Counted from the first letter of the stretch, positions 2 to 19,782 are shown. The stretch: 64,000 nt of DNA from Bdellovibrionota bacterium (GCA_965207455.1 CBDBMJ010000001.1:1312001-1376000); one strand, 5' to 3'. Notes: generated by a model not told the origin, from the letters alone. Made by a program: numbers and translations.

Positions 2-835
2 GAATTCCTTCCCAAACTCAAAGCCAGTAAACAAACGGGGGAAATTTATTTTACGGACACCATTGCTCTGGGTAGCAAGGCAGGTAAAAAAATTGTGGGC
101 ATGGACATATCTGAAGAATACTTAATGGGGGTAAATACAATGGAACAACTAGAAGAAGCAAATCGAGAAATTCGTATGCGTATAGTAAGAGAGTGGCTGG
201 AAAAAGGAGTAAATATTTTGGATATAAACCATACCTATATGGACGCCACCGTAGAGTGCTCCCCAGGAGCCACCATCGAACCCAATACGTATATCTACGG
301 AAAGACGAAGCTAGGAAAGGATGTGCATATTGAATCGGGAGTGCGACTAGAAAATGTGAGTGTGGGAGCAGGAACCCATATACGCGCCAATAGCTATTTG
401 CGGGATTGCACCGTGGGAGAAAATGTGGTGTTAGGACCCATGGCCCATATTCGACCTGGAACCACCGTCGGTAAAAATGCAAAGATAGGAAATTTTGTGG
501 AGCTGAAAAAATCCCATATTGGAAACAATGTGAAAATCAGTCACCTTTCTTATGTGGGGGATACCCAAGTGGGCGACGGCTCCAACCTCAGTTGTGGTTT
601 TATTACCTGTAATTTCGACGGAGTAAAGAAACACAAAACAACGATCGGAGAAAATGTATTTATTGGCAGTGACGTGCAAACCATTGCTCCCATAACTATT
701 GAAGATAATGCCTATATCGCCGCTGGTAGCACCATTCATAAAGATGTTTCCCAAGGCGACTTTGCCATTGCCCGATCCCAACAAACGAACAAAGAAGGCA
801 TGGCTAAGCGATTCTTGGCCAGAAAGAAATCCTAG
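2..835 (+). CDS. glmU: Bifunctional UDP-GlcNAc pyrophosphorylase/glucosamine-1-P acetyltransferase, 5'-partial
   Basis: Frame open from base 2 (GEIYFTD); GVNT, GNFVELK, HLSYVGD, ITCNFDG hexapeptide region; directly upstream of glmS. Confidence 0.95.
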   Translation, partial: EFLPKLKASKQTGEIYFTDTIALGSKAGKKIVGMDISEEYLMGVNTMEQLEEANREIRMRIVREWLEKGVNILDINHTYMDATVECSPGATIEPNTYIYGKTKLGKDVHIESGVRLENVSVGAGTHIRANSYLRDCTVGENVVLGPMAHIRPGTTVGKNAKIGNFVELKKSHIGNNVKISHLSYVGDTQVGDGSNLSCGFITCNFDGVKKHKTTIGENVFIGSDVQTIAPITIEDNAYIAAGSTIHKDVSQGDFAIARSQQTNKEGMAKRFLARKKS

Positions 836-839
836 TTCT

Positions 840-2688: not shown

Positions 2689-2691
2689 CTA

Positions 2692-3108
2692 TCAATACTT
2701 TTGCTTTTCTGGAATAACCCCACGAACACCACCTCTGGGATCCAACATATCACCGTTTCGTCGAGGAATTAAATGAATGTGACAGTGCTGTATTGTTTGT
2801 CCCGCATCCTTGCCACTATTAATACCAACATTAAATCCAGAAACCGTTTTATCTGAATTTTTAATCTCGTCTTTCGCACCAGCCATTAAAAAATGAACCG
2901 CGTTTATTTCAGGTTGGTAGAGTGCAAAGTAGTCAGAGACGTGTCGCTTGGGAATTATAAGCGTGTGGTGTTTGGTCACGGGAAAAGCATCTCGAACGGC
3001 ATAACAAAGCTCATTCTCTGTGATAATACGAGGCTTATCTATCTCACAAAAAAGACAATCTTTTTCCCGCTCCTTATAGCTTTCCACCACTCCTCTAAGG
3101 AATAGCAC
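2692..3108 (-). CDS. HIT family hydrolase, possibly the C-terminal remnant of an HNH-HIT fusion
   Basis: CLFC, FPVTKHHTLIIPKRH, AGQTIQHCHIHLIPR histidine triad, PRGGVRGVIP tail. Confidence 0.9.
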   Translation of the reverse strand: MLFLRGVVESYKEREKDCLFCEIDKPRIITENELCYAVRDAFPVTKHHTLIIPKRHVSDYFALYQPEINAVHFLMAGAKDEIKNSDKTVSGFNVGINSGKDAGQTIQHCHIHLIPRRNGDMLDPRGGVRGVIPEKQKY

Positions 3109-3277
3109 AATGCTTGGAGAGTGGAAATTAGGAAAAATAAAAATCGCGTCGCATTACCTCCCCCTCTCTGACCATAAGAGTTATGATTTATAGAAGTTCT
3201 TACAAACAGTATTAAATGTGACGCTGGAACAGATTTATTATACTATTGACTCAAGAAAGTTTTAGGGGAATATCTCG

Positions 3278-4393
3278 GTGATCTATTTTGACAATAATTC
3301 CACAACTAAGTTTTCGCCAAGTGTTGTTCGCTACTTGCAGGAGGATTGCAGTGCGGACTGGGGAAATGCATCGTCTGAGCATTTATTTGGTCAAAATTTA
3401 AAAAAAATCATTGAAGAAGATCGAAGCTATATTTCCAACTTTCTTGACGTATCAAAAAATACTCTTTTATTTACAAGCGGTGCTACAGAATCCATTAATA
3501 GCATTATCCATCCTATTTTTTTCAATGCGAATAAAATAGGCACAATCATTAGTTCCAAGATAGAGCATGAGGCAACACTTGCTGCCATAGACCGATTAGG
3601 GAAAGCTGGCATTACTGTTCTATGGGTTGAAAATGACAAAAATGGAATGATTATTGAAAGAGATTTAGAGCGACTGGTTCGGGAAAATCCCCATGCCCTT
3701 GTTTCCCTATTATATGCAAATAATGAAACAGGCGTGGTGCAAAATGCTAGGAAGATTGTGGAAATTTGTAAGGAATATGGATGCCTCATTCACTTAGACT
3801 CTGCCCAAATGCTGGGCAAGGGTGAACTCAATCTTTCTGATCTAAACCTAGATTTCGCAAGTTTTTCTGCCCATAAAATAGGGGGCTTAAAGGGTATGGG
3901 GCTATTGTATGTAAAAAATCCAGATAATTTTGTCCCCTTTATTCTAGGTGGTGGACAGGAGCAAGGTCTAAGGGGGGGAACATATAATCTAAATGGAATT
4001 AGAAGCTTTCGGCTGGCTCTAGAGGATGCCCAAAAATGGCGTGTAAAAAATATCAAGGAATTACGAGATAGTTTTGAGAGGCAAGTACTAGAGATTAGTG
4101 ATGGAATTATTATTAACTGTCAGGACTCGGATCGTATTTGTAATACAAGCAATGTCTTTTTTCCAAATATACCAAGTCAGGCAGTGGTTTTAGAGCTATC
4201 GAGAAATGATATTTGTGCCTCAACGGGGTCAGCTTGCAATTCAGGAACTGCTGATCCAAGCCATGTGATACAGGGGCTTGACTTGAGTAAGGAATATGCT
4301 GCATCGTGCCTTCGCTTCTCCCTTGCAGATTTTAATACCCATGATGAGATTAATCAGACTGTGAGAATTTTGAAAAAAATTATTTCCAAATAG
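3278..4393 (+). CDS. sspA: Cysteine desulfurase (IscS/DndA/SspA-like)
   Basis: IYFDNNSTT, TSGATES, NNETG, SAHKIGG (PLP Lys), STGSAC (catalytic Cys); adjacent to sspBCD-like genes. Confidence 0.85.
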   Translation: MIYFDNNSTTKFSPSVVRYLQEDCSADWGNASSEHLFGQNLKKIIEEDRSYISNFLDVSKNTLLFTSGATESINSIIHPIFFNANKIGTIISSKIEHEATLAAIDRLGKAGITVLWVENDKNGMIIERDLERLVRENPHALVSLLYANNETGVVQNARKIVEICKEYGCLIHLDSAQMLGKGELNLSDLNLDFASFSAHKIGGLKGMGLLYVKNPDNFVPFILGGGQEQGLRGGTYNLNGIRSFRLALEDAQKWRVKNIKELRDSFERQVLEISDGIIINCQDSDRICNTSNVFFPNIPSQAVVLELSRNDICASTGSACNSGTADPSHVIQGLDLSKEYAASCLRFSLADFNTHDEINQTVRILKKIISK

Positions 4394-4455
4394 CCCGGCA
4401 AGAGACAAAATAATGCTATACATTGAACCGTAATATAATATAAACTGTAGATTGG

Positions 4456-4491
4456 TTAAACTTTAACTATTTACTATTAACTAAAGTTTAA
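4456..4491. promoter_or_regulatory. 10-bp perfect inverted repeat with 16-bp spacer upstream of sspB, candidate operator
   Basis: TTAAACTTTA (4456-4465) ... TAAAGTTTAA (4482-4491). Confidence 0.35.
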
Positions 4492-4502
4492 TTGAAACAA
4501 GG

Positions 4503-5372
4503 GTGTGTGTGGTGAAATTTGGTGGTCATGAAACGTTTCATTTGCGAGACAGTTGGACGTTCAAGGGATTAAAAATGCTAGATGAGCAGGGCGACCTGTT
4601 TCATAACTCTGAAAAATCCATTGAGTTGTTGGGTGTGGGCACTAATATGGTTAAATCCATACGACACTGGTTGATCGCCACAGAGCTTGCTGAAATCAAA
4701 AACGGAGAATTAAACTTAAGTTCCATGGGTACTTTGCTTATGGCTCATGATCAATATTTCGACAGACTTGGCTCAGCATGGATTTTACATTATCTTCTAG
4801 CCTCTAATAAAGAAAGTGCCACCACCTGGTTTTGGTTTTTTAATAAATTTGGCATCAGTGAATTCACATCAGAATCTGCGGTTCATTATTTAGAGAACTA
4901 TTGCTCCTCTTTAAATAAAAGAGTAAATTCCAACACTTTAGTTAGAGACATCAATACATTGTTAAGAATGTATATAGAGCCTGAGTTTACAGGAAATCAA
5001 ACGCCTGAAGATAATAATATCTGCCCCTTATCCAAGCTTTCACTTATTCAGAAACAGAGGAATGGCACCTATAGAGTACATTCTCCTGACTTAGATGAAT
5101 TACCTGTTGAGATATTTGGATATTGTCTCATTCAATTTTGGATAAAAAAATTAAATAAAATCCCTGAATTTTCATTTGATGAGTTGATTAGCAAAGACAC
5201 CTCTCCTGTGAAGATTTTTTGTTTGAACAACGACAAAACAGTGGAGCTATTGAGCATTCTAGTTGAAAAATATCCCAAGCAATTCAGCTACCATAGAGCA
5301 GGGGGATTTTTTACCATCTCCATATATTCATCAAAAATTCAAAAATTATTAAATGCGTATTATGGAGAATAG
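4503..5372 (+). CDS. sspB: DUF4007 family protein (SspB-like); start may be GTG 4512
   Basis: KFGGHETF...W..KG, LGVGTNMVKSIRHWL, D.YF...W.LHY.LA, TTWFWFFN, CPLSKL motifs. Confidence 0.85.
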   Translation: MCVVKFGGHETFHLRDSWTFKGLKMLDEQGDLFHNSEKSIELLGVGTNMVKSIRHWLIATELAEIKNGELNLSSMGTLLMAHDQYFDRLGSAWILHYLLASNKESATTWFWFFNKFGISEFTSESAVHYLENYCSSLNKRVNSNTLVRDINTLLRMYIEPEFTGNQTPEDNNICPLSKLSLIQKQRNGTYRVHSPDLDELPVEIFGYCLIQFWIKKLNKIPEFSFDELISKDTSPVKIFCLNNDKTVELLSILVEKYPKQFSYHRAGGFFTISIYSSKIQKLLNAYYGE

Positions 5373-5373
5373 T

Positions 5374-8300
5374 ATGACGAAGAAAAGAGTAAAACAAAAA
5401 TCCTTGTTTGACGATATCTTGATTAAGGTTGGAAAGAATTTCTCCAGATCCACTAGCTTAAAAATGGATTTTCAAGATAAAAGCTCCTTAAAGCATTTAA
5501 TTGTATCTGAAAAATTCCAAAAAAACTTCAACAGCATTTGTCCTTCATTTATAGATAACAATTCCAATCAAAGAGTTCATGTTATTTCAGGCACTCCTGG
5601 GGTTGGGAAATCTACTTTTGCCGTATTTCTAGCAAGATGTTTATCCAAAGGGAATAAAGGGAAACTGACCACAATTGTTGAACAGCAGGAAAAAATGCTC
5701 TCTGCTAAATTTACGAAAAACTATAAGCAAATAACTAAGGAAAACTACCTGCCCATATTTCTTAATGGAGATGAGGGAGAAATCGAAGATGCTTTTTACG
5801 AAGCACTAAAAGTTGCTTTTACAGAGCATGATCTTTCTCAGGATTTTGAAGGTTTAGCCCAAAAAAATTCAAATAATGCCTTTGGCGTTATTACTAATTG
5901 GAAAAAAAATTATCCATTAAAATTTGAAGAATTTAAGAAATTTGTTGATAGCAATTATGATGAAGGATATGAGAAATTCCAAAAATCATTGAAGAGAAAT
6001 CGAAGAAATGCTCAAAAATTCTTTTTTAAAGCATACAAGCAAATCACAGGAGGAGCAAGTATTGCCTCGTATCGACATGGACAGGTCATAGATTTATATA
6101 AAAATGCAGCTATCCTATTAAATAAGAAAAAGTTTTCAGGGATTTTTATCGCTTATGATGAATTTGGAAAGTACTTAGAGCGAGGGGTGAGACACCCCAA
6201 TGATTTTGACTTGCAGTTTTTGCAGGATATGGCAGAGTTATGCAATAAGGGACAAGAGTCACATATTCACTTGCTTCTAATAACACATTTGCCTATTTCC
6301 CAATATGCCACACAACTTCCAGCATCTATTCAGCAAGAATGGACGAAAATTGAGGGTAGATTCCAGCAGTCTTCGTTCAACAGTAGCTATGAATCAAGCT
6401 ATACAATTCTTGGTTCAGTATTTGAATCCAATATAAAAGCCGACAACCCCAGTGCATGGAAGAAAATTTCCGCACTTTCAAAAAAATGGGTAGATGTAAA
6501 TTCATCTACTCGTAATTTCCCTGACGTATTTAATACTAAGTATGTTGAGGAAATAATAAGCGAGAGTTTCCCTCTTCACCCTTCTGCATTTTGTTTACTG
6601 CCATTATTAAGTGAAAAAGTTGCGCAAAATGAAAGGACGATGTTTTCATTCCTAACAAGAGATGAGGATTCTTCTCTGCCTAGATTTCTAAAGAACAGTT
6701 TTCTTTCAACTGACCAACTAAACTATATTGGCCCTTTTGATTTATACAGTTATTTTAAGCAATTAATTGAAAATGACATGGCAATAGGTGGCGCCTATAA
6801 AATCGGACTCATAGTTAATGAAGTGTTGAACTCTCTAGATAGTTCTCAAAAATGCGAGAAAGATGTAATTTCACTACTGGGAATCGCAACAATTATCAAC
6901 AACAGATCTATTTTCAGAATTACATCAGAGTCCATACAAACCACTTTGTCTGGATTGTATAAAAGTGATGAAGTGGATAAATCCATTAAAACCCTAGAAA
7001 AATCCAAATCCATTATTTATGACCACACAAAATCTGAATATGTTCTTTTTGAAGGTTCTTCCATTGATATTGGAGAAGAGATTAACAAAGCAAGGCAAAC
7101 AAGACTAACAACTGCTGGCTACATTAATATTTTAAAGAAAAATTTCAATCTAAATTTCATAGTGCCCAAAAAATATAATTTTAAAAATGGAATTACTCGA
7201 TATTTCAGAGAAGAGGTCATTTCTATAGAAGAGCTGATGGCAAAAAAAATAGCCACAGACTATTCAAAAGAAGACGGGAAAGTCTATTACGTCATTCCAT
7301 TTACAAATAGCGACATGACGGCAATAAAAAATCATTTAGAAACATTGAATTTAAAATCCAGTGTTTTTGTACTTACAAACAAACCGCTGGAAATTGAGCG
7401 AGAATTATTAGAGCTACACGCAATAGAGGCTGTTTATTCTAAGAAAGAAATTCTATCCTCTGGACCAAAAGTAAAGAAAGAGCTCGATCATCATAGAGAT
7501 ACAGCTAAAGAAATAATAAAAAAATCTTTAAAGAAAGCCAGATCTAATGTGAATATGGATGTAACCGTCAATTATAAAGGCAAGGTTTTATCCAGTAGAG
7601 TTAATCAAATTCTAGATATTTCCAATTTTGTTTCAGATATATGCGAAGAAGAATACCATTCTTATCCTGTTTTTTACAATGAAATGATCAATAAAGCCAA
7701 GGCAAGTACTCCCATAATTCAAGGTAGAATTAGACTGATATCTGCTTTTGACAAGTGCCATTTAAACCGGTATGGAATTGAAGGAGGAGGCCCTGACTTT
7801 TCACTGTACAAGTCACTTTTAAAATCCAACTCCTTTTCTTTTGATACAAACAATGACGGTACTAAGACTATCAATGGCCTTAAGAAAAATAGTACTTTAA
7901 TTCCGCTCTTTGAAGATTTTCTTGCTTTTTTGAAAGAGTCGGAGCAGACCACTATATCCATGGAGACATTAATAGAGAGATGGAGAAAACCACCTTTTGG
8001 CATAAGAGTTCCTTTAATTCCACTTTATATGAATTTATTTTCTCGCATGACTTCCTCTCCAATAAGTTATTTCCATGACGATGTATTTGTAGGAAAGCTA
8101 GATATTGAATTATTTGAAAACTTGATTAAACAGCCCAAAAAATACTCTCTACGAATGCTCCATTTAGATAAAAAAAGAATGGACTTTTTGAAAAGAATTG
8201 GAAATGCTTTTGCCAAAAATATTCCTTATAAATTCAACACCGATAACCTTGATTTTCTGAAAACAGCAAAAATCATTTCAACCTATTATAGCTTAATTCC

Positions 8301-9129
8301 AAGTTTCACAAGAAGATGCCCAGCACTCACGCGACAGCAAAAAAAGCTTATTGCGCAACTTGAGGTTTTTAAGCAACCAGAGGAATTTATTTTATTTGAT
8401 TTGCCAAATGTCTATACAGGAAAGGCATCAGGTGAGCTTACCAGTTCTGAAATAAACAATTTTATTTCTTCCCTAGAATCTGATTTAAATGAAGTATTTA
8501 AAATATACGTTGACCTAGTAGGGCAGCTAGCAGGACTTCAAAAAGAACATTTACTGAAGCTGCAAGAAATAACAGGAAAGCAAGCTTTTCCAACAATAAA
8601 AAAGGGCGCACCATTGGCAAAATATTGGAAAAATGCTTTACTGATGCTATCTGACAAAACTCTATCCTTTCCTTATAGCGACAAAACCCTAATGTTTGTA
8701 AATCGAATCAACCAGTTGAATGATAAAGCAAACAATCAATCCATCGTGGAAACTTTAGCTGATTCTTTAACTGGGGCTAACCCAAAAAGTTGGAGTGAAA
8801 AGGGACTCTCTCTTTTTGAGCATAATATAAGGTCTGCTATTTCTGAAATAAAACAAATTCATTATTTAAATTTAAACAGTGGTGAGGGTGTTACAACTAT
8901 TTCTAGTTTTGATGAATCTGGAAAACCATCTTTCAAAGAGATATTAAAATCCAACTCCCAAACAAAGAAGCTTAGCTCCATCATTAATTCAATTCGGACA
9001 AATATAGAAAATTTAGAAGATATAGAGAAGAACACTGTTCTTTTAGAACTGCTAAATGAGATTAACAATAAAAAAAATCAGCCCACAAAGGTGACTAACA
9101 AGTCAACCATTGGTGCGGCATGGGGGTAA
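5374..9129 (+). CDS. sspC: Large P-loop ATPase (SspC-like)
   Basis: GTPGVGKS Walker A, YDEFGKYLE Walker B, LQDMAE, EWTKIEGRF, FPLHP, AQNERTMFSFL, PPFGI; lies between DUF4007 and PAPS-reductase genes. Confidence 0.85.
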   Translation: MTKKRVKQKSLFDDILIKVGKNFSRSTSLKMDFQDKSSLKHLIVSEKFQKNFNSICPSFIDNNSNQRVHVISGTPGVGKSTFAVFLARCLSKGNKGKLTTIVEQQEKMLSAKFTKNYKQITKENYLPIFLNGDEGEIEDAFYEALKVAFTEHDLSQDFEGLAQKNSNNAFGVITNWKKNYPLKFEEFKKFVDSNYDEGYEKFQKSLKRNRRNAQKFFFKAYKQITGGASIASYRHGQVIDLYKNAAILLNKKKFSGIFIAYDEFGKYLERGVRHPNDFDLQFLQDMAELCNKGQESHIHLLLITHLPISQYATQLPASIQQEWTKIEGRFQQSSFNSSYESSYTILGSVFESNIKADNPSAWKKISALSKKWVDVNSSTRNFPDVFNTKYVEEIISESFPLHPSAFCLLPLLSEKVAQNERTMFSFLTRDEDSSLPRFLKNSFLSTDQLNYIGPFDLYSYFKQLIENDMAIGGAYKIGLIVNEVLNSLDSSQKCEKDVISLLGIATIINNRSIFRITSESIQTTLSGLYKSDEVDKSIKTLEKSKSIIYDHTKSEYVLFEGSSIDIGEEINKARQTRLTTAGYINILKKNFNLNFIVPKKYNFKNGITRYFREEVISIEELMAKKIATDYSKEDGKVYYVIPFTNSDMTAIKNHLETLNLKSSVFVLTNKPLEIERELLELHAIEAVYSKKEILSSGPKVKKELDHHRDTAKEIIKKSLKKARSNVNMDVTVNYKGKVLSSRVNQILDISNFVSDICEEEYHSYPVFYNEMINKAKASTPIIQGRIRLISAFDKCHLNRYGIEGGGPDFSLYKSLLKSNSFSFDTNNDGTKTINGLKKNSTLIPLFEDFLAFLKESEQTTISMETLIERWRKPPFGIRVPLIPLYMNLFSRMTSSPISYFHDDVFVGKLDIELFENLIKQPKKYSLRMLHLDKKRMDFLKRIGNAFAKNIPYKFNTDNLDFLKTAKIISTYYSLIPSFTRRCPALTRQQKKLIAQLEVFKQPEEFILFDLPNVYTGKASGELTSSEINNFISSLESDLNEVFKIYVDLVGQLAGLQKEHLLKLQEITGKQAFPTIKKGAPLAKYWKNALLMLSDKTLSFPYSDKTLMFVNRINQLNDKANNQSIVETLADSLTGANPKSWSEKGLSLFEHNIRSAISEIKQIHYLNLNSGEGVTTISSFDESGKPSFKEILKSNSQTKKLSSIINSIRTNIENLEDIEKNTVLLELLNEINNKKNQPTKVTNKSTIGAAWG

Positions 9130-9133
9130 AAAT

Positions 9134-9952
9134 ATGAATTATTTAGATATAGATTCTACTGCGCGACACATCTGTTCACTATCTGGTGGTAAAGACTCAA
9201 CAGCATTAGCTGTCTACTTAAAAGATAAAATACCCAATATTGAATATGTATTTTGTGATACCGGCTCGGAGCTAACTGAAACATACGATTTCCTAGACCG
9301 TGTGGAAGCATATTTAGGTGCTAAAATTGTTCGTTTAAATAGTGGAAAGGGTTTTGAGGAGTATTTAAATAAACACATGAACTATCTACCCTCTCCCATG
9401 TCTCGATGGTGTACCGCTGAAATGAAAATTAGACCTTATGAGCAATATATTGGTAAAGATAAATGCTATTCTTATGTGGGAATTCGAGCTGATGAAAATC
9501 GAGAGGGCTATATATCAAAGAATGATAATATTATCCCTAAATATCCCTTTAAAGAGGATGGAATTGATAGAGCAGGAGTCTATAAAATTTTAGAGGACTC
9601 TGGTCTTGGTTTGCCAAAATATTATGAATGGCGTTCCCGTTCCGGTTGTTATTTTTGTTTTTTCCAGCGGTCTATTGAGTGGGTTGGTCTACTGGAGCGT
9701 CACCCCAAACTATTTGAGAAAGCAGAAGCATTTGAAAAAATGGGATATCGAGGTGACAAAGTAGATTTCACTTGGGTCAAGGGACGAACACTGGACTGGA
9801 TAAGAAAAAATAAAGATGAGATTAAAAAAAGGCATAACGACAGGATGAAGAAAACACTTGAAAAAAAAGTACACACCAATATACATGATGTTTTTGAGAG
9901 TGCTGCTAGTGAGGAATCATCGGCAAGAGCCTGTAATATTTGTGACTTATAA
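9134..9952 (+). CDS. sspD: PAPS reductase-family protein (SspD-like)
   Basis: SGGKDS PP-loop, FCDTG, RWCT, GIRADE, RSGCYFCFFQ, C-terminal CNIC. Confidence 0.88.
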   Translation: MNYLDIDSTARHICSLSGGKDSTALAVYLKDKIPNIEYVFCDTGSELTETYDFLDRVEAYLGAKIVRLNSGKGFEEYLNKHMNYLPSPMSRWCTAEMKIRPYEQYIGKDKCYSYVGIRADENREGYISKNDNIIPKYPFKEDGIDRAGVYKILEDSGLGLPKYYEWRSRSGCYFCFFQRSIEWVGLLERHPKLFEKAEAFEKMGYRGDKVDFTWVKGRTLDWIRKNKDEIKKRHNDRMKKTLEKKVHTNIHDVFESAASEESSARACNICDL

Positions 9953-9960
9953 GAGATATA

Positions 9961-11430
9961 ATGGAAAATAGAAGTTTAAATTATGAGATTCGATCCAAGA
10001 CTGCGATGGAAAGATATGAGTTTTCCAGACCTGTAAAATTTGCACTCAGAGATCTAGTTATTAAAAAAAATTGGAGTTTCTTTGATTATGGTTGTGGAAA
10101 AGGCTCCGACATCTCATTTCTTAAAGGATTAAATATTGAATCAAACGGATATGACCCTTATTTTTTCCCAAAAAATGAGAAAATAAAATCTGATATTGTA
10201 AATCTAGGGTATGTAATAAATGTAATAGAGGATCCAGAGGAAAGAAAATCAACCATCAAAGAAGCATACTCACTTGCAGATAAATGCCTGATTGTTTCAG
10301 CACAAACAAAAGCAGCTGCCATTCATGATGCACAAGAATTTGGTGATGGCTGTCTTACAAAAAGAGAAACCTTTCAGAAATATTTTTCACAAGAAGAACT
10401 CAAGGCATTACTATCCGACGTTTTAAATACTACACCATACCCTGCTGGACCAGGAATTTTTTATATTTTTAAAGATGAGAGTGCTCGGAGTGAGTATTTA
10501 ACAGTTCGTTACGATTCCACACGTTTCCTCAGAACAACAGAAACGCCATTTTTGAAACAAAAACGCTTCTACCCTCCCATGAATGAGATAAAAGAAGAAA
10601 AACTTAGTAAAAGCTCTTCTGTAAGTGATTTAGTAGACTGGGTGAGCACAAGAGGTCGTTTTCCCACAGAGTTTGAATTTACAGGATATGAGGAAATTTC
10701 CAAGCTAGGGGTTCAACGGAATTTTTTAGAAAACTGGGTATTAAACAATCTAAATCAGGACGCTTTTGAGAATGCGAAAAAAGTTCGTAGGCAAGATATA
10801 TTACTTATGCTTGCCCTCACCCGACTTGATCAGAACGGCAGACCTAAGCTAAAAGACCTTCCCCTACAAAGCAGCTTAGATATAAAGGCATTTTTTAAAA
10901 CCTATAACAATGCAGTTCTTAATGCGGACAAATTGCTTTTTAGTGTTGCTGATCCCAAAAGAGTTCAAGATGCCATACAGCAATCTGAGGTTGGCAAAAA
11001 ATTACCCGATAGTATTTACCTGCATACTTCAGCCCTTCCATACGCTCCAGATATTCTCCAAATATTTGTAGGCTGTGCCCGTGCTGTTGTGGGAGATGTG
11101 GAAGGTGATGTAATTATAAAAATTCCCAAAAAAGCCACCTCTGTTTCATTCTTACTATATCGTGATTTTGATAGCTCTCCCCATCCTGAATTAATGCTAT
11201 CTGTGAAGGTAAAACTAAGAGAAGCAAGGATTTATTCCAGAAACTACACAAAATCGGACAATCCTCCTATTTTGCATAGAAAAGAAACATTTGTTCACAC
11301 CAGCTACCCTTTATTCAATAAATTTAAAAAAGAAACCAAAAAAGAAGAATCCTTAGGGCTTTTGGGAAGAACAGATATTGGTTTCAAGAAAAATTGGGAA
11401 AAGCTCACAGAAAATATCACCTTGAGTTAA
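9961..11430 (+). CDS. DNA phosphorothioation-associated putative methyltransferase
   Basis: KTAM.R...SRP, FDYGCGKGSD SAM motif, GYDP, VNLGYVINVIED, TFQKYF, NPPILHRKE. Confidence 0.85.
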   Translation: MENRSLNYEIRSKTAMERYEFSRPVKFALRDLVIKKNWSFFDYGCGKGSDISFLKGLNIESNGYDPYFFPKNEKIKSDIVNLGYVINVIEDPEERKSTIKEAYSLADKCLIVSAQTKAAAIHDAQEFGDGCLTKRETFQKYFSQEELKALLSDVLNTTPYPAGPGIFYIFKDESARSEYLTVRYDSTRFLRTTETPFLKQKRFYPPMNEIKEEKLSKSSSVSDLVDWVSTRGRFPTEFEFTGYEEISKLGVQRNFLENWVLNNLNQDAFENAKKVRRQDILLMLALTRLDQNGRPKLKDLPLQSSLDIKAFFKTYNNAVLNADKLLFSVADPKRVQDAIQQSEVGKKLPDSIYLHTSALPYAPDILQIFVGCARAVVGDVEGDVIIKIPKKATSVSFLLYRDFDSSPHPELMLSVKVKLREARIYSRNYTKSDNPPILHRKETFVHTSYPLFNKFKKETKKEESLGLLGRTDIGFKKNWEKLTENITLS

Positions 11431-11432
11431 AG

Positions 11433-12408
11433 ATGGAAAATATAATTCATTATAATAATTTAGGCGATATTGTGGCAGAAGAGTTCAAAAAATCTCAAAA
11501 AGAAATACTTATTTTTTCTCCTTATATTACCACAAACGCCTTAAAGAAAATTCTTGATCCAGTATCATCAGGTGTTCATGTTTCTATTATTACAACATGG
11601 AAAGTGCAAGATATAGCTTATGGTGCCAGCGAGCTTGCCTCCTATGAGTTTGCAAAAAAAAGAGGGTTTCAGTTTTTTTTGAATCAACAAATACATTTAA
11701 AAACATACCTATCTGACCATAAAAAAGTAATTACAGGCTCTGCCAACTTAACCAATAATGGTATGGGATTCTCCTCCAACCCAAATAAAGAAACTCTTGT
11801 AGAAACAGACTGTTGTCCAGGCGATTACTTGCATTACTTGCTATCAATATTACGTGATTCCAAATTAGTTGATGATGAGATTTTTGCTTATTTTAAAGAA
11901 AAATCTCAAGAAATAAAAATAGATAAAATCAGTGATTCTGTTCAAGAAAATATAGATAAAGACGCATTTAAAGAAAAAAAAGATAGTTTCTTAGTTTCTG
12001 AATTGCCCATGTCTTCCAGCGTTGAAGTTATTTATGAAATTATAAAAGAGCAAAAAATCTGTTCAATGATCAGGACGAAATACTGCGCATTCCATGATTT
12101 AGCGAAATACAACATAAGTTATAATGAATTAACAAGCATGGATGATTTTAAGAAAAAAAATGCATCTAAATTTCTTTAAGCATCCATTTATAGTAAAATT
12201 TGTAGCCTCTTTAAACAAATCCAAGAGCTTCGGCCGAGTAAAGGAATGGATACAAAGAAATTGTACCAATGTGCCCGTTCCTAACAGAAGAGAATTGACA
12301 GCAAATGTGAGGACTCTTTTTGATTGGTTGATAGAATTAGACCCCGATTCTTTTGTAGTGGAGCGACCAAGGCATGCAGAAGTTTTATTTAGGAAAAATC
12401 CAAAATGA
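11433..12408 (+). CDS. Phospholipase D-family (HKD) nuclease-like protein; +1 frameshift in A8 run 12153-12160
   Basis: SPYI, HLKTYLSD (HxKxxxxD), GSANLT; ORF 12142..12408 continues it and overlaps the next start as ATGA. Confidence 0.8.
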
Positions 12409-12759
12409 TTGATTATAATCAACCGCTATTGAAATTATTAAAAAAATGCTTTTGATATAAAAACTCAGGGAAACCCCAAAGAACAAGCACTGTTTGATGA
12501 TATTATTCAAAGATGGACATCAGGGAGAGAAGAGCCAAATTTTTCTAAAATAATATATGAAATGGATTTAATCAAAAATGACGAAGATAGAGTAAGGGAA
12601 CTTGAAAAAAATGCAAAGGAAATAAATTCAAAGGTTAGCGGGGAAGCATTAGGAGTTCTTTTTAATGACATAAAAAAAATATTATTATCCGATAATGCTA
12701 TCAATAAAAATGAAAAAATTATATTAGATACTCTAGAATCCTGCTGGTCAAAAAAATGA
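12405..12759 (+). CDS. TerB-like small protein (~117 aa after removing one A from A7 at 12440-12446)
   Basis: ATG overlaps the upstream TGA; reconstructed MIDYNQPLLKLLKNAFDIK...KKILLSDNAINKNEKIILDTL ends in a TerB-like DxxIxxxE motif. Confidence 0.5.
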
Positions 12760-13203
12760 TTTTAATTGATCGCCAAGTAGAGCGGATTAGAACAAAAAAG
12801 CATTTTATTCCTCACACCACATTTGAAGCGATTGGGATACTTATTTGCAATAGTAATCCGAGTGGATGGAAATATAACAAAAGATGAAATATCCTCTTTG
12901 AGAAAAAATTTACGAACGTGGAATAATGAAAATGCCAGATTGATAATTCATGCAATTAACTTGATCGATCCATTTTCTTCAAGTGCAAATATTATAAATC
13001 TTTTTAAAAAAACTACTGAATTTTCCAGTATAGAGGAAAAATCAGTGATGAATTGCCTTGACTTTTTAAATGATTCATCTCCAAGCACAAAAAAGTTAAT
13101 ATACCAACAAATAGTATCTTTAATAAAGGCTGACGGGCATGTGCATAAAAATGAGAGATGGATATGGTATCACATGAAACAAAAATGGAATATAAATAAG
13201 TAG
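12756..13203 (+). CDS. TerB-family protein; +1 frameshift between ~12794 and 12836
   Basis: ATG 12756 overlaps the previous TGA; two TerB motifs IRVDGNITKDE and IKADGHVHKNE. Confidence 0.7.
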
Positions 13204-13214
13204 GAGATAAGTCA

Positions 13215-14904
13215 TTGTTTGATGAATTAAGACATTTATTAAGTAGAGTTGCAGTACATGACCTCAAAAATTATCTTGGAAAAGAAATTGTTGGGTTGGC
13301 AGATTATTTAAATGAAAGTGATTCTGCCAGTAAACTTGTTAATGCTGCAATATCTACAGATGGGAAAAAATTACTAGAAAGAAAGACAATCCGCTGGCTA
13401 TTGATATTTACGCATCTGAAAAAAGAAGAAATTGAGTCTCTGGGCGCAATCTTTGAATGTTCATTCTAAAGATACTGCACAATGCATAGACAATATATCC
13501 AGCCTACCTTTTTTAAGCAATAAAAATAATAGAATAATTTTAGAGGCTCTAAATTTAGATATAAGTTATCTTCCTGATAAAGCAATTTCTTCCGATGAAC
13601 TGGGGCAAGAAAAAATATTGGCTAAAAATAAATTTTTTGAACTGTTAGATTATCAATTTGATATAAAAATGCGAGTATTAAAAATCTTTAAAACAACTCA
13701 GCTTGCTCGATGCATGATTCATATGCCAACGGGTTCAGGGAAAACTAAAACCGCAATGAATATATTACATAATTATTGGTGGCAAGAGCATGACTGCAAT
13801 GGAATTATCGTTTGGATGGCCCACTCAGAAGAATTGCTAAAACAAGCAATTGATGCATTTAAAGATATGTGGGAGGTAATGGGGCGAAAGGACGTGGATT
13901 TAATCAGATTATGGGGTAATTTTAATCTCCCTCAAGAACTTCCTGTTCGAGGAATAATTTTTACTGGAATACAAAAAATGATTTCAATATCGAAAAAGAA
14001 CCAAATAGATGAATTAAATAAGCACCTCCGCATGGTAGTTATAGATGAGGCACACAAGGCACCAGCTAAAGAGACAAAAAAAGTAATATATGAAATGATG
14101 AAAATGCCCGAGAATAGCCAAAATAGAGTTTTACTTGGTCTAACCGCAACACCGGGGAGATCAACTGGATTTGATAAACAAGATGAAATTTTAATATCCA
14201 TGTTCGAGAATTCAAAAGTTGATTTAAATATTAAACATATGGATAAGTATTTAACAGATGGATATACTAGTAAAAATGTAATTGATCATCTCCAGCACAG
14301 AAAGATACTTTCTAAATTTGAAAGAGAACCAATCCAAATTGAAAGAAAATTACTTAACCTAAGTCCTGCTGATATTTTAAACTTGGAGAAATCAATAAAA
14401 GATAAATCGTCTGAAATCAAAGCTAGCACTTTAGATAAGATAGCTAAAAGTAAAGCTAGGAATCAATTAATTATTGAAAAATTAATTGATTTAAATTCCC
14501 AAGGATTAAAAACATTAGTATTTGCTTGTAACTTAAATCATGTTAGACTTCTTACAGCAGCACTTCAAATGAGAGGAGTTAATGCGGAACATGTTCTGGG
14601 AGATACTCCTTCCAATCATAGAGCAGACGTTATATCAAAGTTTAAAGATGACCATAGTGGTTTAAATATATTGATTAATTATGGTGTTTTGACAACTGGT
14701 TTTGATTCTCCAAATATTGATTGTATTTTTATAGCAAGACCTGTTACCTCAGTGATTTTATACAGCCAAATGATTGGAAGAGGCATCCGTGGAACTATGA
14801 TGGGTGGGAAATCTTCATGTATATTAATAGATGTTGTTGACAACATCAAACAGCATGGTGATGAGTCATGGGCTTTTAGTTTTTTTAATAAATATTGGAG
14901 TTAA
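13215..14904 (+). CDS. SF2 DEAH/ResIII-type helicase; +1 frameshift at ~13419-13444
   Basis: RBS AGGAG; MPTGSGKT, IDEAH, LTATP, LTTGFDSP, QMIGRGIRG. Confidence 0.88.
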
Positions 14905-14915
14905 AGGAGAAAAAT

Positions 14916-16661
14916 ATGGAGAATAATGAAAAAGATATTATAAACTTAGAATACTATGCAGATGCCCTAAGAAACACTGGATATAAAAATACGGAAAATG
15001 CATTGGCTGAAATTGTGGACAATAGTTTAGAGGCTGGTGCAAAAGATATTTTAATTTTATGTAAAACAGGTATTAGGCATACCAGAAAATCTATAGTGGA
15101 AATTGCCATATTGGATAATGGATGTGGAATGCCTGATGATATTTTATCCAAATGCTTAGGTATCGGAGAAAGCACACGCAGAGAACGAAAAGGGATGGGA
15201 CGATTTGGTGTTGGACTACCTCAAGCTTCTTTTCATGTGGCACCTCGTGTAGAAGTCTACTCATGGCAAAATGGTGCCACTCCTAGATATGTATACCTTG
15301 ATGTAAATGAAATGAAATCAGGAAAACAAAAAAAACTTTCCCAGATAACGAAAGAAAACTTACCACAATCCTATCAAAAGTACTTAAAGGGTTTTACTTT
15401 TGAAAATGAAGGTAAAGAAATGAGTTTTTCAGAATCTGGCACATTAGTAATTTGGAAAGCTTGTGACAGATTAAACCCTAAAACAGCAACAGCACTTTAT
15501 CCCAGATTCAACCGTCTTTTAGGAAGAAAATTTCGACATTTCATCAATGATGACTGTACTATTGGTTTTTTCGCTGAAGGTGATGATAGAACTAAAAAAA
15601 TACTTAAACCCAACGATCCTCTTTGTCTCATGACTAATAATCAGGTTTTGGGCAATGAGAATGATCCTACAGAAATATATGATGAGGGAGAGCCAATATT
15701 TGAGCTTTGGGATAATGCAGGCATGATCTGTCCACATGAAGAAGAAATTGAATACAGGCAAGGCAATAAGATAAAAAAGAGTAAAATTGAAATCACATTT
15801 TCACTTGCTAAGCCTATTTATCAGAGAGCTGGTGGAGAGAATAAAATTGGACAACATTTGAAAAAAAATGTGGGAATTTCGATAGTCCGAGCTAATCGAG
15901 AAATTGATTTTGGGAAATTCGATTTATTCAGTGATATAAATGAGCCACAGCATAGGTGGTGGGGATGTGAAGTAAAATTTAAAACTGAATTAGATGAAAC
16001 ATTCGGCGTCTCCAACAACAAACAGCAAGTAGAACTTCGTGAATTAAATGGAGTAGAATATGAAGAAGACGACATAAAACCTATTTGGTTTAAGCTTGAA
16101 AAAATAGTTGCCAGAGAAATTAAACATATTTATAAAGAAATTAAAAAAAGAAAAGAAGGAAGTAGAAAAAAAACCTCCCAACCTTCGAAAGAAGAAGCCA
16201 TAGTAGGAGTTGTTGAAGCAAGAGATGAAATACCAACAAAATCAGAGGAAGTTAGAGAAAATACTCATCCTGAAGAATTGAAAAACTTAGTTCGAGAAGT
16301 AACAATAGAATCCACAGGAAACCCCCATCCAACCGATGATGAAATAAACGCCCAAATGACTTCTCCGGTCCATATTACTGAAAAAGACATGGGCGATTCT
16401 TCCCATTTTATTGATATATCCACTAAAATGGGAAATTGTTGGCTAACAATAAATACAGGTTCCATATTTTATCGAGAAATGTACAGCAAATTAGAGGAAA
16501 AAGATGAAAGTGTATTCAGTGCCTTTAAACTTATTTTAATGGCATATGCTAGGGCAGAAGATGAAGCTATCTCGGAAAAGCTTCGTGAATCATTTAGAGA
16601 AGTAAGACGATTATGGGGTGTAAAAATTGAAAAATATTTGAAAACTGATTATCAATCATAA
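14916..16661 (+). CDS. GHKL (MORC/HATPase_c-like) ATPase
   Basis: RBS AAGGAG; ALAEIVDNS N-box, DNGCGM G1, GRFGVGL G2, SGTLVIW, GISIVRANREI S5-like region. Confidence 0.85.
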   Translation: MENNEKDIINLEYYADALRNTGYKNTENALAEIVDNSLEAGAKDILILCKTGIRHTRKSIVEIAILDNGCGMPDDILSKCLGIGESTRRERKGMGRFGVGLPQASFHVAPRVEVYSWQNGATPRYVYLDVNEMKSGKQKKLSQITKENLPQSYQKYLKGFTFENEGKEMSFSESGTLVIWKACDRLNPKTATALYPRFNRLLGRKFRHFINDDCTIGFFAEGDDRTKKILKPNDPLCLMTNNQVLGNENDPTEIYDEGEPIFELWDNAGMICPHEEEIEYRQGNKIKKSKIEITFSLAKPIYQRAGGENKIGQHLKKNVGISIVRANREIDFGKFDLFSDINEPQHRWWGCEVKFKTELDETFGVSNNKQQVELRELNGVEYEEDDIKPIWFKLEKIVAREIKHIYKEIKKRKEGSRKKTSQPSKEEAIVGVVEARDEIPTKSEEVRENTHPEELKNLVREVTIESTGNPHPTDDEINAQMTSPVHITEKDMGDSSHFIDISTKMGNCWLTINTGSIFYREMYSKLEEKDESVFSAFKLILMAYARAEDEAISEKLRESFREVRRLWGVKIEKYLKTDYQS

Positions 16662-17029
16662 TTTATGTAGATATGCTTTTCTCAGCACTTTAGACAATTT
16701 TTAAAGCCAGAACGTGACACGAAATCACGCAGACCGTCAAGCGGACAACTTCCCTGAAGCAGCAAAGCTTCCTTTTGTATGATTACCAAGCAATTCTGTC
16801 GCACTACAATTGGGAATTCAACAGACGCATTGCGCATTTTCAAACTCTTAAAAACAAAAGGAATTATGCGGCGAGTTGCTAATTTTTTCTTTTGCAGCGA
16901 TGGAGATTTTCGTTTTTGTGCCCACAAACTCTATAATTTCCTTGTCTTATCCAGCTCTACTATTGTAAGACGTTTATAATGCTTAGGCGGTCTAAGGGAT
17001 ATTAAAGCTAAGCCAACTTGCTGGATACA

Positions 17030-17197
17030 ATGATGACAACAGAAGAAGAATTAAAAGCCAACCTTAATAAAATTCTTGAGATTGAATCAAATTACTTTGA
17101 TATGGAAGAGCTCTCTAATCATCAAAAAGCCACTATTGTAAAAAAGATAGTCAACGTTATCAAGAACAACGGAAACAACGATAATGATACTAAATAA
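17030..17197 (+). CDS. 55-aa small protein not in the ORF track, candidate CxC-ATPase-associated small subunit (PbeB-like position)
   Basis: Read directly: MMTTEEELKANLNKILEIESNYFDMEELSNHQKATIVKKIVNVIKNNGNNDNDTK*; overlaps the ATPase start by 14 nt. Confidence 0.6.
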   Translation: MMTTEEELKANLNKILEIESNYFDMEELSNHQKATIVKKIVNVIKNNGNNDNDTK

Positions 17198-19265
17198 TAT
17201 TACAGTAAAGAATTTCAGGCAGTTCATGGGAAGCCAGTCGATTGATTTCTCGAATACTCCAGAAAAAAACGTCACCATCATTCATGGAGAAAATGGTTCT
17301 GGGAAAACCACACTCCTCAATGCCATTACTTGGTGCTTATACAGTCACACTAGCCCTGATTTTGAGGAGTCAGATTATCTGCTGTCGAAAAAAGCAGTTC
17401 TTAAATCAAACATGAATGACATCATTGAGTGCTCTGTAGTTTTAAAGTTTACTGATTCCAATCTCGATTATGAGGCCATAAGAAAATATAAGTATAGGTC
17501 ACTGGGACCGAATAAGAAGCCAAGTAAACATGGAGTGGGTTCCTTTGAGTTATTTATAAAAAAAGATGGTGAAAGAAGGAAGGCAGACAATCCAAATGTT
17601 TTTATTAATAGAATAATCCCAAAAGAAATGCACAGCTATTTCTTTTTTAACGGCGAAAGAATAGACAGACTCGCACGACGCTCAAATAACTTTGAAATAA
17701 GAGAGGCGATAAAGGTTCTTCTAGGAGTAACAATACTAGAAAGAGCGCTTGTTCACCTGAAGGCTGCACATAACATAATAAACACACAGCTAAGCAACAA
17801 CAGTAGGCTAGACCACAATATCAGGAATATTCTACTTGAACTGACCAAGAATAATAAAGATTTAGAGCACAATGAGAAATGCAGGGAACATTGCAAAAAG
17901 AATGCTGGATCACTTAAAAAAGACAACGAAGCCATCAGAGATAAACTTAGAGATTTTAAAGAAACAAGAGAGTTAGAGGAGAAACGAGATGAATTGTTTG
18001 CTGAAGATACGGAGCTTTCTTCCTCGATAAAATCCATTGAGAAACGAATAATAAAATTCATCACTCGAAAATCTTGTTTTTCATTTATGGGTCCAGTATT
18101 TGAGCAAGTTAACAATATATTGAAAGATCTTAAAACCTCAAATATCCTGCCAAACGAAGTGAAAGAGGACTTTATCAGGCGTTTGTTAGCAGAAAATTTA
18201 TGTATATGCAAAAGAAAACTTGCAAATGATTCCAAGGCATCTGCTGCAGTCAAAAAATTGCTTGACTACAGTATAAGCAAAGACGTTGACCAAAATATTG
18301 CCATTATGAAAAATAACTTAACTGCGATTAATGAAAAAATGCAGGAAAACCCAAGGGAGTTGAAAAACCTCATTCAAGAAAGAGAACGGTTAAGCACAAA
18401 ATCAGAAAAAGTGGCAAGGCAACTGGATGAATTAAAGAAATCCCTAAAGGGAATTAAGGGCAAGGAGGAAGTGAGAAAACTAAGCATTAAATTCGAGGAA
18501 AATGAAGCTACGACTGAGCAAGAGTTAAAAAACTATGGTCAATATGAATCAAAAATTTTATTTTTGAAGCAAAAAATTACTGAACTCGAAAAATCCAAGA
18601 AGCTAATGTCTCAAAAAAACCAGGAAGCCGAACGGTTGCTGAAATCTAATAATTTCAGCGCAGAACTCATCAGGTATACCCAAAAAATTTATGATGACAG
18701 AATCGCAGAAATCAGAGAAAAATTATCCTTTAAAGTCAACAGACTATTCCGACGTATCTGCAAGAAAGATTATCACATAAGAATGAACGAAGATTTTGTT
18801 ATAGATGTATTTGATTCGAAAACAGAACATGCAAAACCAGTTGGAAAAAGTACCGGTGAAAATCAAATGACAAGTTTATCTTTCATCGGCAGCATACTTG
18901 AATTTGCCAAGGAGATTAAAACCGACAAAAACAAATACGGGAGCATAATAAATAAATATGGAGGGATTTATCCTCTAGTTATGGACTCACCTTTTGGTAG
19001 CTTAGACCAGACATCCAGTAAAAACGTGGCAGAAAGCCTTCCCTCTCTTTCTGAGCAAATCGTACTTATGGTTTCCTCTACCCAATGGAGAAATGAAGTG
19101 AAAAATGGAATGATCTCTAAAGTAGGAAAACAATATGTATTATGCAACCACACCCCTAAACCTGGAAAAGCTGCAAAAGTTTTTATAGAATACAACGGAA
19201 GAAAGCACCCCTTTGCCAAATCAACAGATGGTCCTGAATTCACAGAAGTTGAGGAATTAGTATGA
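17184..19265 (+). CDS. SMC/Rad50-like ABC ATPase with CxC hook (DndD-related, PbeC-like)
   Basis: NFRQF, GENGSGKTT, YFFFNGE, coiled coils with central CICKR, KSTGE signature, LVMDSPFGSLD Walker B. Confidence 0.88.
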   Translation: MILNNITVKNFRQFMGSQSIDFSNTPEKNVTIIHGENGSGKTTLLNAITWCLYSHTSPDFEESDYLLSKKAVLKSNMNDIIECSVVLKFTDSNLDYEAIRKYKYRSLGPNKKPSKHGVGSFELFIKKDGERRKADNPNVFINRIIPKEMHSYFFFNGERIDRLARRSNNFEIREAIKVLLGVTILERALVHLKAAHNIINTQLSNNSRLDHNIRNILLELTKNNKDLEHNEKCREHCKKNAGSLKKDNEAIRDKLRDFKETRELEEKRDELFAEDTELSSSIKSIEKRIIKFITRKSCFSFMGPVFEQVNNILKDLKTSNILPNEVKEDFIRRLLAENLCICKRKLANDSKASAAVKKLLDYSISKDVDQNIAIMKNNLTAINEKMQENPRELKNLIQERERLSTKSEKVARQLDELKKSLKGIKGKEEVRKLSIKFEENEATTEQELKNYGQYESKILFLKQKITELEKSKKLMSQKNQEAERLLKSNNFSAELIRYTQKIYDDRIAEIREKLSFKVNRLFRRICKKDYHIRMNEDFVIDVFDSKTEHAKPVGKSTGENQMTSLSFIGSILEFAKEIKTDKNKYGSIINKYGGIYPLVMDSPFGSLDQTSSKNVAESLPSLSEQIVLMVSSTQWRNEVKNGMISKVGKQYVLCNHTPKPGKAAKVFIEYNGRKHPFAKSTDGPEFTEVEELV

Positions 19266-19747
19266 GTAAATATGGTTTTAAAAGCTTTGTATTTTGTGAC
19301 TCGCACTCTGAGTTAGTAGATAATTTATGTAAAGCAGGTTCAAGGTATTTTGATAATATTTATGAGCTATTTACATTAGCAGCATGTATTGGATATAGTA
19401 AGGGTCGCAAATCCAAAGTAGAAAAAGCTGGAAAAAAAATAGAATTCAATCAGCTCAGATCATTTGAAAACTTTGACGGAATTTTTCTTTCTATCTGTTT
19501 AGCCCACTCAAAAGAATCTTCCATCCTTAAAGATGATGACGAAACAATTACAAGTAGAATGACAATCTTTAGTGAATACGCAAATGGAGGGATGGAAATA
19601 CTGAAAAAAGAGGTTAATTCCAACCAAGGTGATTTCCAAGAAAATCTCATTCAGTATATACAAGATAATGGGGTTCACTTTAAAGAATTCAAAGAAAAAA
19701 CTACGGAAGGAACTAGCAAGTACAAGCATCTCCTAGAAGGACTGTAA
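19262..19747 (+). CDS. Dnd system-associated protein 4-like (DndE-like, PbeD-like)
   Basis: YELFTLAACIGY and FSEYANGGMEIL motifs; overlaps the ATPase stop (ATGA). Confidence 0.7.
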   Translation: MSKYGFKSFVFCDSHSELVDNLCKAGSRYFDNIYELFTLAACIGYSKGRKSKVEKAGKKIEFNQLRSFENFDGIFLSICLAHSKESSILKDDDETITSRMTIFSEYANGGMEILKKEVNSNQGDFQENLIQYIQDNGVHFKEFKEKTTEGTSKYKHLLEGL

Positions 19748-19782
19748 TTTTAGAGAAGTACTGACCTCTGAGGGAATAGAAT

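Follow-up and report, generated by a model that had tools for sequence, protein, structure and literature searches.

A predicted phosphorothioate-based defence locus of a Bdellovibrionota bacterium with a previously unnamed helicase/GHKL/PLD cassette as candidate effector

Based on a computational analysis of a 64,000-nucleotide (nt) stretch of a Bdellovibrionota genome (GCA_965207455.1, CBDBMJ010000001.1:1312001-1376000; this whole stretch is called the window, and positions are counted from its first letter), we describe a predicted phosphorothioate (PT)-based defence locus in which a previously unnamed cassette is the candidate effector. The cassette consists of a superfamily 2 (SF2) helicase, a MORC-like GHKL ATPase and an HKD nuclease of the phospholipase D (PLD) family, and stands behind a complete SspABCD writer. 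We think it reasonably likely that the segment between glmS and a CLC-channel gene is a horizontally acquired defence island of two units, and we lean to the same degree towards placing unit 1 at 3278-16661 (Ssp plus cassette) and unit 2 at 17030-19747 (PbeB-like, PbeC and PbeD genes). In the reading that we prefer, and hold with somewhat more belief than doubt, unit 1 is a PT restriction-modification-like cassette and the helicase/GHKL/PLD set is a conserved, widespread companion of sspBCD that has no relation to either SspE or SspFGH, which makes it a candidate for a third kind of Ssp restriction partner. An earlier note on this DNA had proposed an Ssp writer coupled to a Pbe-like reader, with MORC and TerB components added. 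Its central proposal, in which an Ssp writer is paired with an effector not yet described, stands, whereas the Pbe-centred wiring and the splitting of PbeA that it implied do not.

The Ssp writer and the helicase/GHKL/PLD cassette

The first four genes of the locus, all on the plus strand, make up the writer. The cysteine desulfurase gene sspA (3278-4393; PADLOC SspA 7e-103, Aminotran_5 1e-62, SAHK and STGSAC motifs) is followed by the DUF4007 gene sspB (4503-5372; DUF4007 4e-74, PADLOC SspB 6e-68), the large P-loop ATPase gene sspC (5353-9129; PADLOC SspC 1e-152 as against BrxC 6e-48, Walker A motif GTPGVGKS) and sspD, encoding a PAPS-reductase-fold enzyme (9110-9952; PADLOC SspD 8e-106, PAPS_reduct 8e-13, SGGKDS motif). 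The PADLOC models are matched end to end, so that the four-gene SspABCD module is complete; with full-length matches and intact motifs, the assignment of these genes in the earlier note was correct. As is established for the family, SspABCD would be expected to write PT marks on the host's own DNA.

Behind sspD and a methyltransferase gene, the window carries an HKD nuclease, a TerB-like gene, a helicase and a GHKL ATPase, all on the plus strand; from sspB through the GHKL gene the spacing between neighbours is -37 to +11 nt. The HKD nuclease gene (11394-12408, of which the window open reading frame (ORF) covers 11394-12179; PLDc_2 2.6e-14) is split at an A8 run (12153-12160), and the cassette PLD profile matches both pieces (11328-12176 and 12133-12405). 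H101, K103, G115, S116, N118, N131 and E133 are invariant in 22 sequences of the family (H-x-K, G-S-x-N, N-x-E), and the proteins share a conserved C-terminal domain of ~90 residues. Both the profile and an AlphaFold model (predicted local distance difference test (pLDDT) 85.8) match the nucleases SauUSI, NucT, Nuc and Zucchini; the Foldseek matches to the model cover the N-terminal nuclease domain, with none to the C-terminal domain. The helicase is an SF2 DEAH enzyme (13215-14904, window ORF 13432-14904; ResIII 2e-24, Helicase_C 1e-13) with the motifs GSGKT, DEAH and QMIGRGIR, and the cassette helicases keep PTGxGKT, DEAH and QxxGRxxR in 38 sequences. Here too the cassette profile matches both pieces into which the window splits the gene. 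The MORC-like GHKL ATPase (14895-16661; HATPase_c_3 4e-20) belongs to a family in which E39, D42, N43, D74, G78, G102, G105, G107 and K376 are invariant across 35 sequences. When its profile was compared with the PDB, MORC2, MORC4 and MORC3 came first (4.7e-14 to 3.9e-8, the matches being confined to the GHKL domain); a single-sequence PDB search with the protein found nothing. The family counts 1,565 representatives at E <= 1e-30, which their source names only as 'ATP-binding protein' or 'hypothetical protein', and neither PADLOC 2.0.0 nor NCBIfam 20.0 holds a specific model for the cassette PLD, helicase or GHKL protein. On the window ORFs the cassette profiles score 527 for the helicase, 580 for the GHKL protein and 247+48 for the PLD pieces. 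The window's PLD, helicase and GHKL genes are to be read as a variant-order copy of a conserved Ssp-linked cassette and not as a split PbeA with add-ons. The GHKL ATPase, previously taken for an expansion, is instead a core member of that cassette.

How firmly is the cassette tied to the Ssp writer in other genomes? A metagenome scan with the GHKL alignment returned 323 relatives, of which the best 80 were kept; all of these loci were thus ascertained through the GHKL protein. In 38 of the best 80 a helicase lies directly upstream of the GHKL gene, and among these 38 loci SspB, SspC or SspD was found in 25, a PLD gene in 28, the methyltransferase in 6 and PbeC in none. Where at least 3 kb can be seen on both flanks, all eight loci have Ssp genes; where at least 5 kb can be seen on one flank, 18 of 19 do, the sole exception (L030) starting inside the helicase. 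In ten loci sspD leads to the helicase on the same strand, with a gap of 4-57 nt between the profiled frames in six and an overlap in two more, and in nine other cassette loci sspDCB stands divergently after the PLD gene. Outside the metagenome set, two genome contigs (L003 and L011) carry genes for a helicase and a GHKL ATPase behind sspBCD. In an independent sample of 401 genomes from the window's phylum the GHKL family occurs in two (G000 and G146) and SspD in five, and both GHKL genomes are among these five. In G146 the order at the locus (L100) is PLD, TerB-like, helicase, GHKL, SspE-like, sspB, sspC, sspD, methyltransferase (on the other strand) and sspA, and the PLD/TerB-like/helicase/GHKL set lies 7 kb from sspBCD. 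The genes behind sspD accordingly recur with sspBCD elsewhere, namely in 25 of the 38 metagenome loci, in the two genome contigs and in G146, and the link between the writer and its putative reader is well supported by context. The cassette is usually, though not always, the only candidate effector beside sspBCD: none of 30 flanking ORFs of six long cassette loci matched SspE, SspF, SspG or SspH.

These counts bear on a quite different interpretation, namely that independent systems have come to lie side by side in a defence hot spot, with SspABCD as an orphan writer, the helicase/GHKL/PLD set as a PT-independent restriction or abortive system of MORC type, and PbeBCD as a remnant. Defence genes do cluster in islands, and around other cassette loci there are Mokosh-like, TIR, PDC-S02, WYL and mad-like genes. 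Operons that combine MORC-type ATPases, SF2 helicases and nucleases (HKD enzymes in a few cases) have been predicted to form methylation-based restriction systems, with no PT link found in the available text (PMC2292703; here and below, statements on cited papers refer to the part of each text that was available). Moreover, Wang et al. 2021 reported 2,211 of 2,678 sspBCD clusters without sspE or sspFGH and asked about unknown restriction partners, and orphan writers were proposed as one explanation (PMC8092258). Against a chance neighbourhood stand the loci with enough flank, in which the cassette adjoins sspBCD in 8 of 8 and 18 of 19 cases, often with overlapping or near-touching genes, and the phylum sample, in which the cassette is confined to SspD-positive genomes. 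We therefore regard mere adjacency of independent systems as improbable, and retain a functional pairing of Ssp with the cassette as the likelier reading.

Some further features of cassette loci and of more distant relatives were recorded. A conserved ORF of 314-322 amino acids (aa) with no Pfam match lies between GHKL and PLD in three loci (L038:4230-5198, L056:7831-8775 and L057:3942-4907). Small class-I methyltransferases of 192-207 aa (Methyltransf_25/11) are found in or beside Ssp-cassette loci (L053:6896-7519 and L100:18050-18625), the latter also with weak TPMT and TehB matches. After the cassette PLD gene of L053 comes an ArdC-like gene (L053:12795-13865; ArdcN plus a zincin-like metallopeptidase), a hint that this locus rides on a conjugative element. 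Distant GHKL relatives in L071 and L074 stand near DndD-like ATPases, weak PAPS-reductase matches and a cysteine desulfurase, and GHKL proteins may thus also accompany Dnd-type writers.

Frameshifts, haplotypes and the Pbe genes

When the window is read in three frames, glmS (699-2688), the PLD gene, the TerB-like region and the helicase's N-terminus are each split at short homopolymer runs. Of the words sampled from 11394-14904, 94% occur in one public sequencing run. Comparison with its contigs shows that the window carries single-base indels: one base differs at each of 1536, 12153 (where a contig is one base shorter), 12440, 12749, 12834 and 13442, and two bases differ at 16695. Applying these differences turns glmS into a single ORF and gives a PLD protein of 337 aa (11394-12408), a TerB-like protein of 265 aa (12405-13203) and a helicase of 562 aa (13215-14904). 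In the case of glmS, a contig of depth 19.8 that lacks one base at 1536 restores the single ORF, and the frames of relatives span 620-654 aa; the split of this gene is most likely an assembly indel, and the other frameshifts in the assembly deserve suspicion. The remaining frame-restoring differences come from one contig of depth 4.1. A single PLD ORF of 334 aa in L027 spans both window pieces, and in the helicase a window ORF of 84 aa aligns with residues 1-77 of the G146 protein while an ORF of 490 aa aligns from residue 77 on. Decay of the locus was considered as the main explanation of the frameshifts and rejected: glmS is mended at a depth of 19.8, the other differences fall exactly at the predicted breaks, and the PLD, TerB-like and helicase genes of G146, in the same order, are intact at the matching lengths of 316, 272 and 567 aa. 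We take this to be a genuine locus that is intact save for probable errors of assembly, and the SspA, SspC, SspD, methyltransferase, PLD, helicase, GHKL and PbeC proteins carry catalytic motifs. All genes listed in the earlier note between 3278 and 19747 lie on the plus strand at the coordinates it gave, and family searches agree with its labels; its count of 13 genes falls to 12 once the frameshifts are corrected, the two TerB-like ORFs being one gene of 265 aa.

Unit 2 begins 368 nt behind the GHKL gene and consists of three genes that overlap one another, again on the plus strand. The first is an ORF of 55 aa in the place of PbeB (17030-17197; 55-59 aa, depending on a start at 17018 or 17030), assigned by position only, which overlaps the start of pbeC by 14 nt and has no family match in Pfam, PADLOC or NCBIfam. 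It is followed by pbeC, a CxC-clade ABC ATPase (17184-19265; PADLOC PbeC 1e-156 as against DndD 9e-52, with GENGSGKT, CIC at 340 and LVMDSP), and by a putative pbeD, encoding a DndE-like small protein (19262-19747; TIGR04062 70.3 bits against a cut-off of 74.25, PADLOC PbeD 3.4e-5), whose position fits. The intervening gap (16662-17029) contains a terminator-like hairpin (16756-16771) and the junction of two haplotypes at 16926/16927. In an 812-nt contig of the run, with a depth of 17.1, position 3098 is linked to 16927 by 752 different letters. Depth in the run is 19.8 over 600-3098, 10.7 over 3069-12013, 4.1 over 11984-16956 and 23.9 over 16927-19797. The more abundant haplotype thus lacks 3099-16926, that is, sspABCD, the methyltransferase and the cassette, and keeps the Pbe genes, from which it follows that the Ssp-plus-cassette block has been gained or lost on its own. 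There is no room for PbeA in either haplotype, and a second copy of the PbeB/PbeC region, as a possible alternative haplotype, was not found in the assembly. Loose contig ends at 4175, 9202, 10119, 12144, 14462 and 14879 indicate several related island haplotypes in the same sample.

Do these genes and the writer nevertheless form one hybrid system, in which Ssp marks are read by a Pbe-type machine, with the PLD and helicase genes as a split PbeA and the MORC ATPase and TerB as add-ons? Much in the locus invites the idea. The best PADLOC match of the helicase is PbeA (2.6e-23, profile positions 234-630), the PLD gene precedes the helicase as the corresponding domains do in PbeA, the PbeB-like, PbeC and PbeD genes lack a PbeA of their own, and all genes are co-oriented and share a low GC content. 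For Pbe to be active, the host DNA must carry PT (PMC6459918). In addition, three of 18 genome loci that encode the methyltransferase (L004, L009 and L018) combine it with sspBCD and a full PbeA-PbeC-PbeD set, which makes a Pbe reader of Ssp marks plausible in general. For this locus the comparison of the helicases points the other way: the window helicase shares 51% identity with its counterpart in the G146 cassette, as against 24% over 293 aa with a genuine PbeA (L009). The cassette profiles score the window PLD and helicase ORFs, and these are separate genes with the TerB-like gene between them, not a fused PbeA. PbeC was seen in none of the 38 helicase-GHKL metagenome loci, nor in L003, L011 or L100, and the two units are set apart by the 368-nt gap with its hairpin and by the haplotype that keeps PbeBCD without 3099-16926. 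A single hybrid system is therefore doubtful, and the claim that a Pbe-like reader is wired to Ssp as one set is not borne out; the Pbe genes are a neighbour module without PbeA, a separate unit, which could read the same PT mark. Promoter and terminator scans (65 against 62.5 in shuffled sequence, and 12 against 11.0) found no excess and are silent on operon structure.

Proposed mechanism and relation to known systems

We propose the following model for unit 1. SspABCD would mark the host's own DNA with PT. The helicase and the MORC-like ATPase would spend ATP to translocate along DNA and to clamp or loop it, and the HKD nuclease, probably a dimer by analogy with other single-HKD nucleases, would cut DNA judged foreign by its PT state. 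In this manner the cassette would probably destroy unmarked invading DNA; the writing of PT, the cutting of unmarked DNA and the formation of a complex are all predictions from the genes and their context. A more daring extension, which we put forward as speculation and think rather unlikely, is that the cassette constitutes a third class of Ssp restriction partner that explains some of the sspBCD clusters reported as partnerless (84% of all), and that its arrival here supplies the PT mark, and perhaps a nuclease and motor, to a resident PbeBCD without PbeA, so that one writer would serve two readers and a dormant system would be re-armed.

A number of observations weigh against the model or against its details. 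Loci found through the GHKL protein may be interrelated. In thirteen of the 38 loci with helicase and GHKL no Ssp gene is visible; each of these lies on a contig of at most 8.4 kb, and they neither support nor refute the link. ORFs resembling SspE (GmrSD_N/C or DndB) are present in four of the 38 (L026, L028, L030 and L050), an SspE-like fragment occurs in L037, and G146 likewise encodes an SspE-like protein. The window places the PLD gene first, as against the common order helicase-GHKL-PLD, and shares this variant order with G146. As for the nuclease itself, the frame-restoring difference at position 12153 accounts for only 4.1 of a depth of 11.7, and the PLD gene might truly be broken in one haplotype by a real frameshift at this position; the run that mends it may also be the very sample from which the window was assembled. 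Finally, cutting could be licensed by missing PT, in the manner of SspFGH, or the effector could be activated by PT, as in SspE and Pbe.

How does the proposed unit compare with established PT systems? SspABCD-SspE (Xiong et al. 2020, as cited in PMC8092258 and PMC9646914) has the same four-gene writer and provides PT-based self/non-self defence. The difference lies in the effector: neither this locus nor this genome has a DUF262 or DUF1524 match, and the candidate here is a helicase with a MORC-like ATPase and an HKD nuclease. In a genome assembly that is 94.7% complete, PF03235 (DUF262), PF07510 (DUF1524) and the two SspE models PDLC02783 and PDLC02790 had no match, with positive controls matching, and DndC (TIGR03183) had none either. 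The genome-wide blanks for SspG (PDLC02800) and DndH (TIGR03238) are weak, as the control for each matched in no genome. SspF, SspG and SspH had no match among the island proteins in a PADLOC scan, the SspF and SspH models not having been searched genome-wide. The earlier note saw no SspE, dndB, dndC or dndFGH at the locus; for SspE and DndC, and weakly for DndH, the blank extends to the assembly as a whole. SspABCD-SspFGH (Wang et al. 2021, PMC8092258) likewise places a three-gene restriction module on sspBCD, and this module can co-exist with SspE, as the cassette does in a few loci. It differs from the cassette in that no helicase, GHKL or PLD domain is named for SspFGH in the available text, the only features given being a Walker A motif for SspF and an FtsK-like C-terminus for SspH. 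DndCDEA-PbeABCD (Xiong et al. 2019, PMC6459918; Rakesh, Aravind and Krishnan 2024, PMC10853773), which also goes under the name of CxC ABC-ATPase/DndE systems, shares with this locus the CxC protein PbeC, a putative DndE-like PbeD and a small ORF in the PbeB place, and it too uses an HKD nuclease and an SF2 helicase. Of 553 pbeAC pairs, 320 lack dndCD in their vicinity (PMC6459918). In contrast, the present locus has no fused PbeA, its genome has no dndC match, the neighbouring writer is Ssp and not Dnd, and the helicase and PLD proteins are of another family. The MORC/paraMORC operons (Iyer, Abhiman and Aravind 2008, PMC2292703) share a GHKL protein nearest to MORC, an SF2 helicase and a nuclease, with the same proposed looping of DNA; their modification partner is a DNA methylase, as opposed to SspBCD here.

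The first description of CxC systems is reportedly that of Krishnan et al. 2020 in Nucleic Acids Research (NAR). In the literature searched on Ssp, Pbe, CxC, MORC and GHKL, supplements excluded, we found no description of an Ssp-linked helicase/GHKL/PLD cassette. The available text of PMC10853773 mentions neither MORC, GHKL nor TerB and contains no coupling of Ssp with CxC/Pbe systems that we could find, and a link of Ssp to the cassette was not found in what was available of PMC12914056, PMC12839542, PMC3632139, PMC8569181 and PMC12137116. The view that the combination of Ssp with such an effector is uncharacterised is thus upheld within these sources; Krishnan et al. 2020 and Xiong et al. 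2020 may bear on its novelty.

What are the implications for Ssp biology? The cassette is a concrete and clonable candidate for the unknown partners of partnerless sspBCD clusters (PMC8092258). If the model is true, a bacterial MORC-like ATPase gains a defined epigenetic mark to work with. The locus also offers two handles, the natural presence/absence polymorphism of the Ssp-plus-cassette block and the neighbouring PbeBCD without PbeA; the latter allows one to ask whether one PT writer serves two readers.

The methyltransferase, the TerB-like protein and the island setting

Between sspD and the PLD gene lies a phosphorothioation-associated putative methyltransferase (TIGR04096; 9961-11430, plus strand; 453 bits against a cut-off of 150) with the S-adenosylmethionine (SAM) motif DYGCGKG. 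It starts 8 nt after sspD and overlaps the PLD gene by 37 nt, an arrangement consistent with translational coupling. Could this enzyme, and not Ssp, provide the self mark that the cassette or PbeBCD reads, making the system methylation-based? The tight coupling to both neighbours would suit such a role, and CxC/Pbe systems in which methylases take the place of PT have been described (PMC10853773, PMC6459918). Against it, the gene is present in only 6 of the 38 helicase-GHKL loci. The AlphaFold model (pLDDT 83.8) resembles class-I methyltransferases acting on small molecules or tRNA, the Foldseek matches including cg3271, Trm9, METTL6 and DhpI, and no DNA-methyltransferase title occurs among the matches listed; a single-sequence PDB search found nothing. 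The gene also travels with PT genes. A scan of genome contigs with the methyltransferase gave 18 loci, eight of which hold Ssp genes (L002, L003, L004, L009, L011, L015, L016 and L018), and four others (L005, L006, L014 and L019) hold weak PAPS-reductase matches beside DndD-like ATPases. A methylation mark is for these reasons very improbable, and we keep to SspABCD as the presumed source of the mark.

The TIGR04096 family varies in its architecture. A module with the consensus 'NPPILHRKET ... GFKKNWEKL' is C-terminal in the window protein and in L033 and N-terminal in ten members (L003, L004, L009, L011, L015, L016, L018, L030, L037 and L056), and the proteins of L018 and L056 have a further C-terminal domain of ~200 aa. 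In two of the methyltransferase loci a more distant GHKL ATPase directly follows sspD, with no helicase or PLD gene (L015:14734-17466 and L016:5099-7882). It is paired with a protein of ~331 aa that has weak GIY-YIG and HEPN_Swt1 matches, and the two are possibly another Ssp-linked effector pair.

The TerB-like gene (12405-13203, window ORF 12823-13203, plus strand), whose pieces are joined by the contig differences at 12440, 12749 and 12834, encodes two TerB-like halves (Pfam TerB 3.5e-4, below the cut-off; Atlas 0.93). Its homologue in G146 is 272 aa long, stands in the same place and is 40% identical, and among all loci examined the gene was found only in these two. We are inclined, with modest confidence, to regard the TerB-like protein and the TIGR04096 methyltransferase as accessory parts of unit 1.

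The interval between glmS and the CLC-channel gene (2689-19782) represents the whole insertion. In each of the 10 relatives with both flanking genes, these are direct neighbours no more than 66 nt apart, and PbeC had no match in the 40 relatives searched. From 3001 on, the island block has a GC content of 0.31-0.38, compared with 0.44-0.49 in the flanks. At its left edge the insertion also includes a HIT-family gene on the minus strand (2692-3108); in the relatives, glmS stands directly beside the CLC-channel gene with no HIT gene between them.

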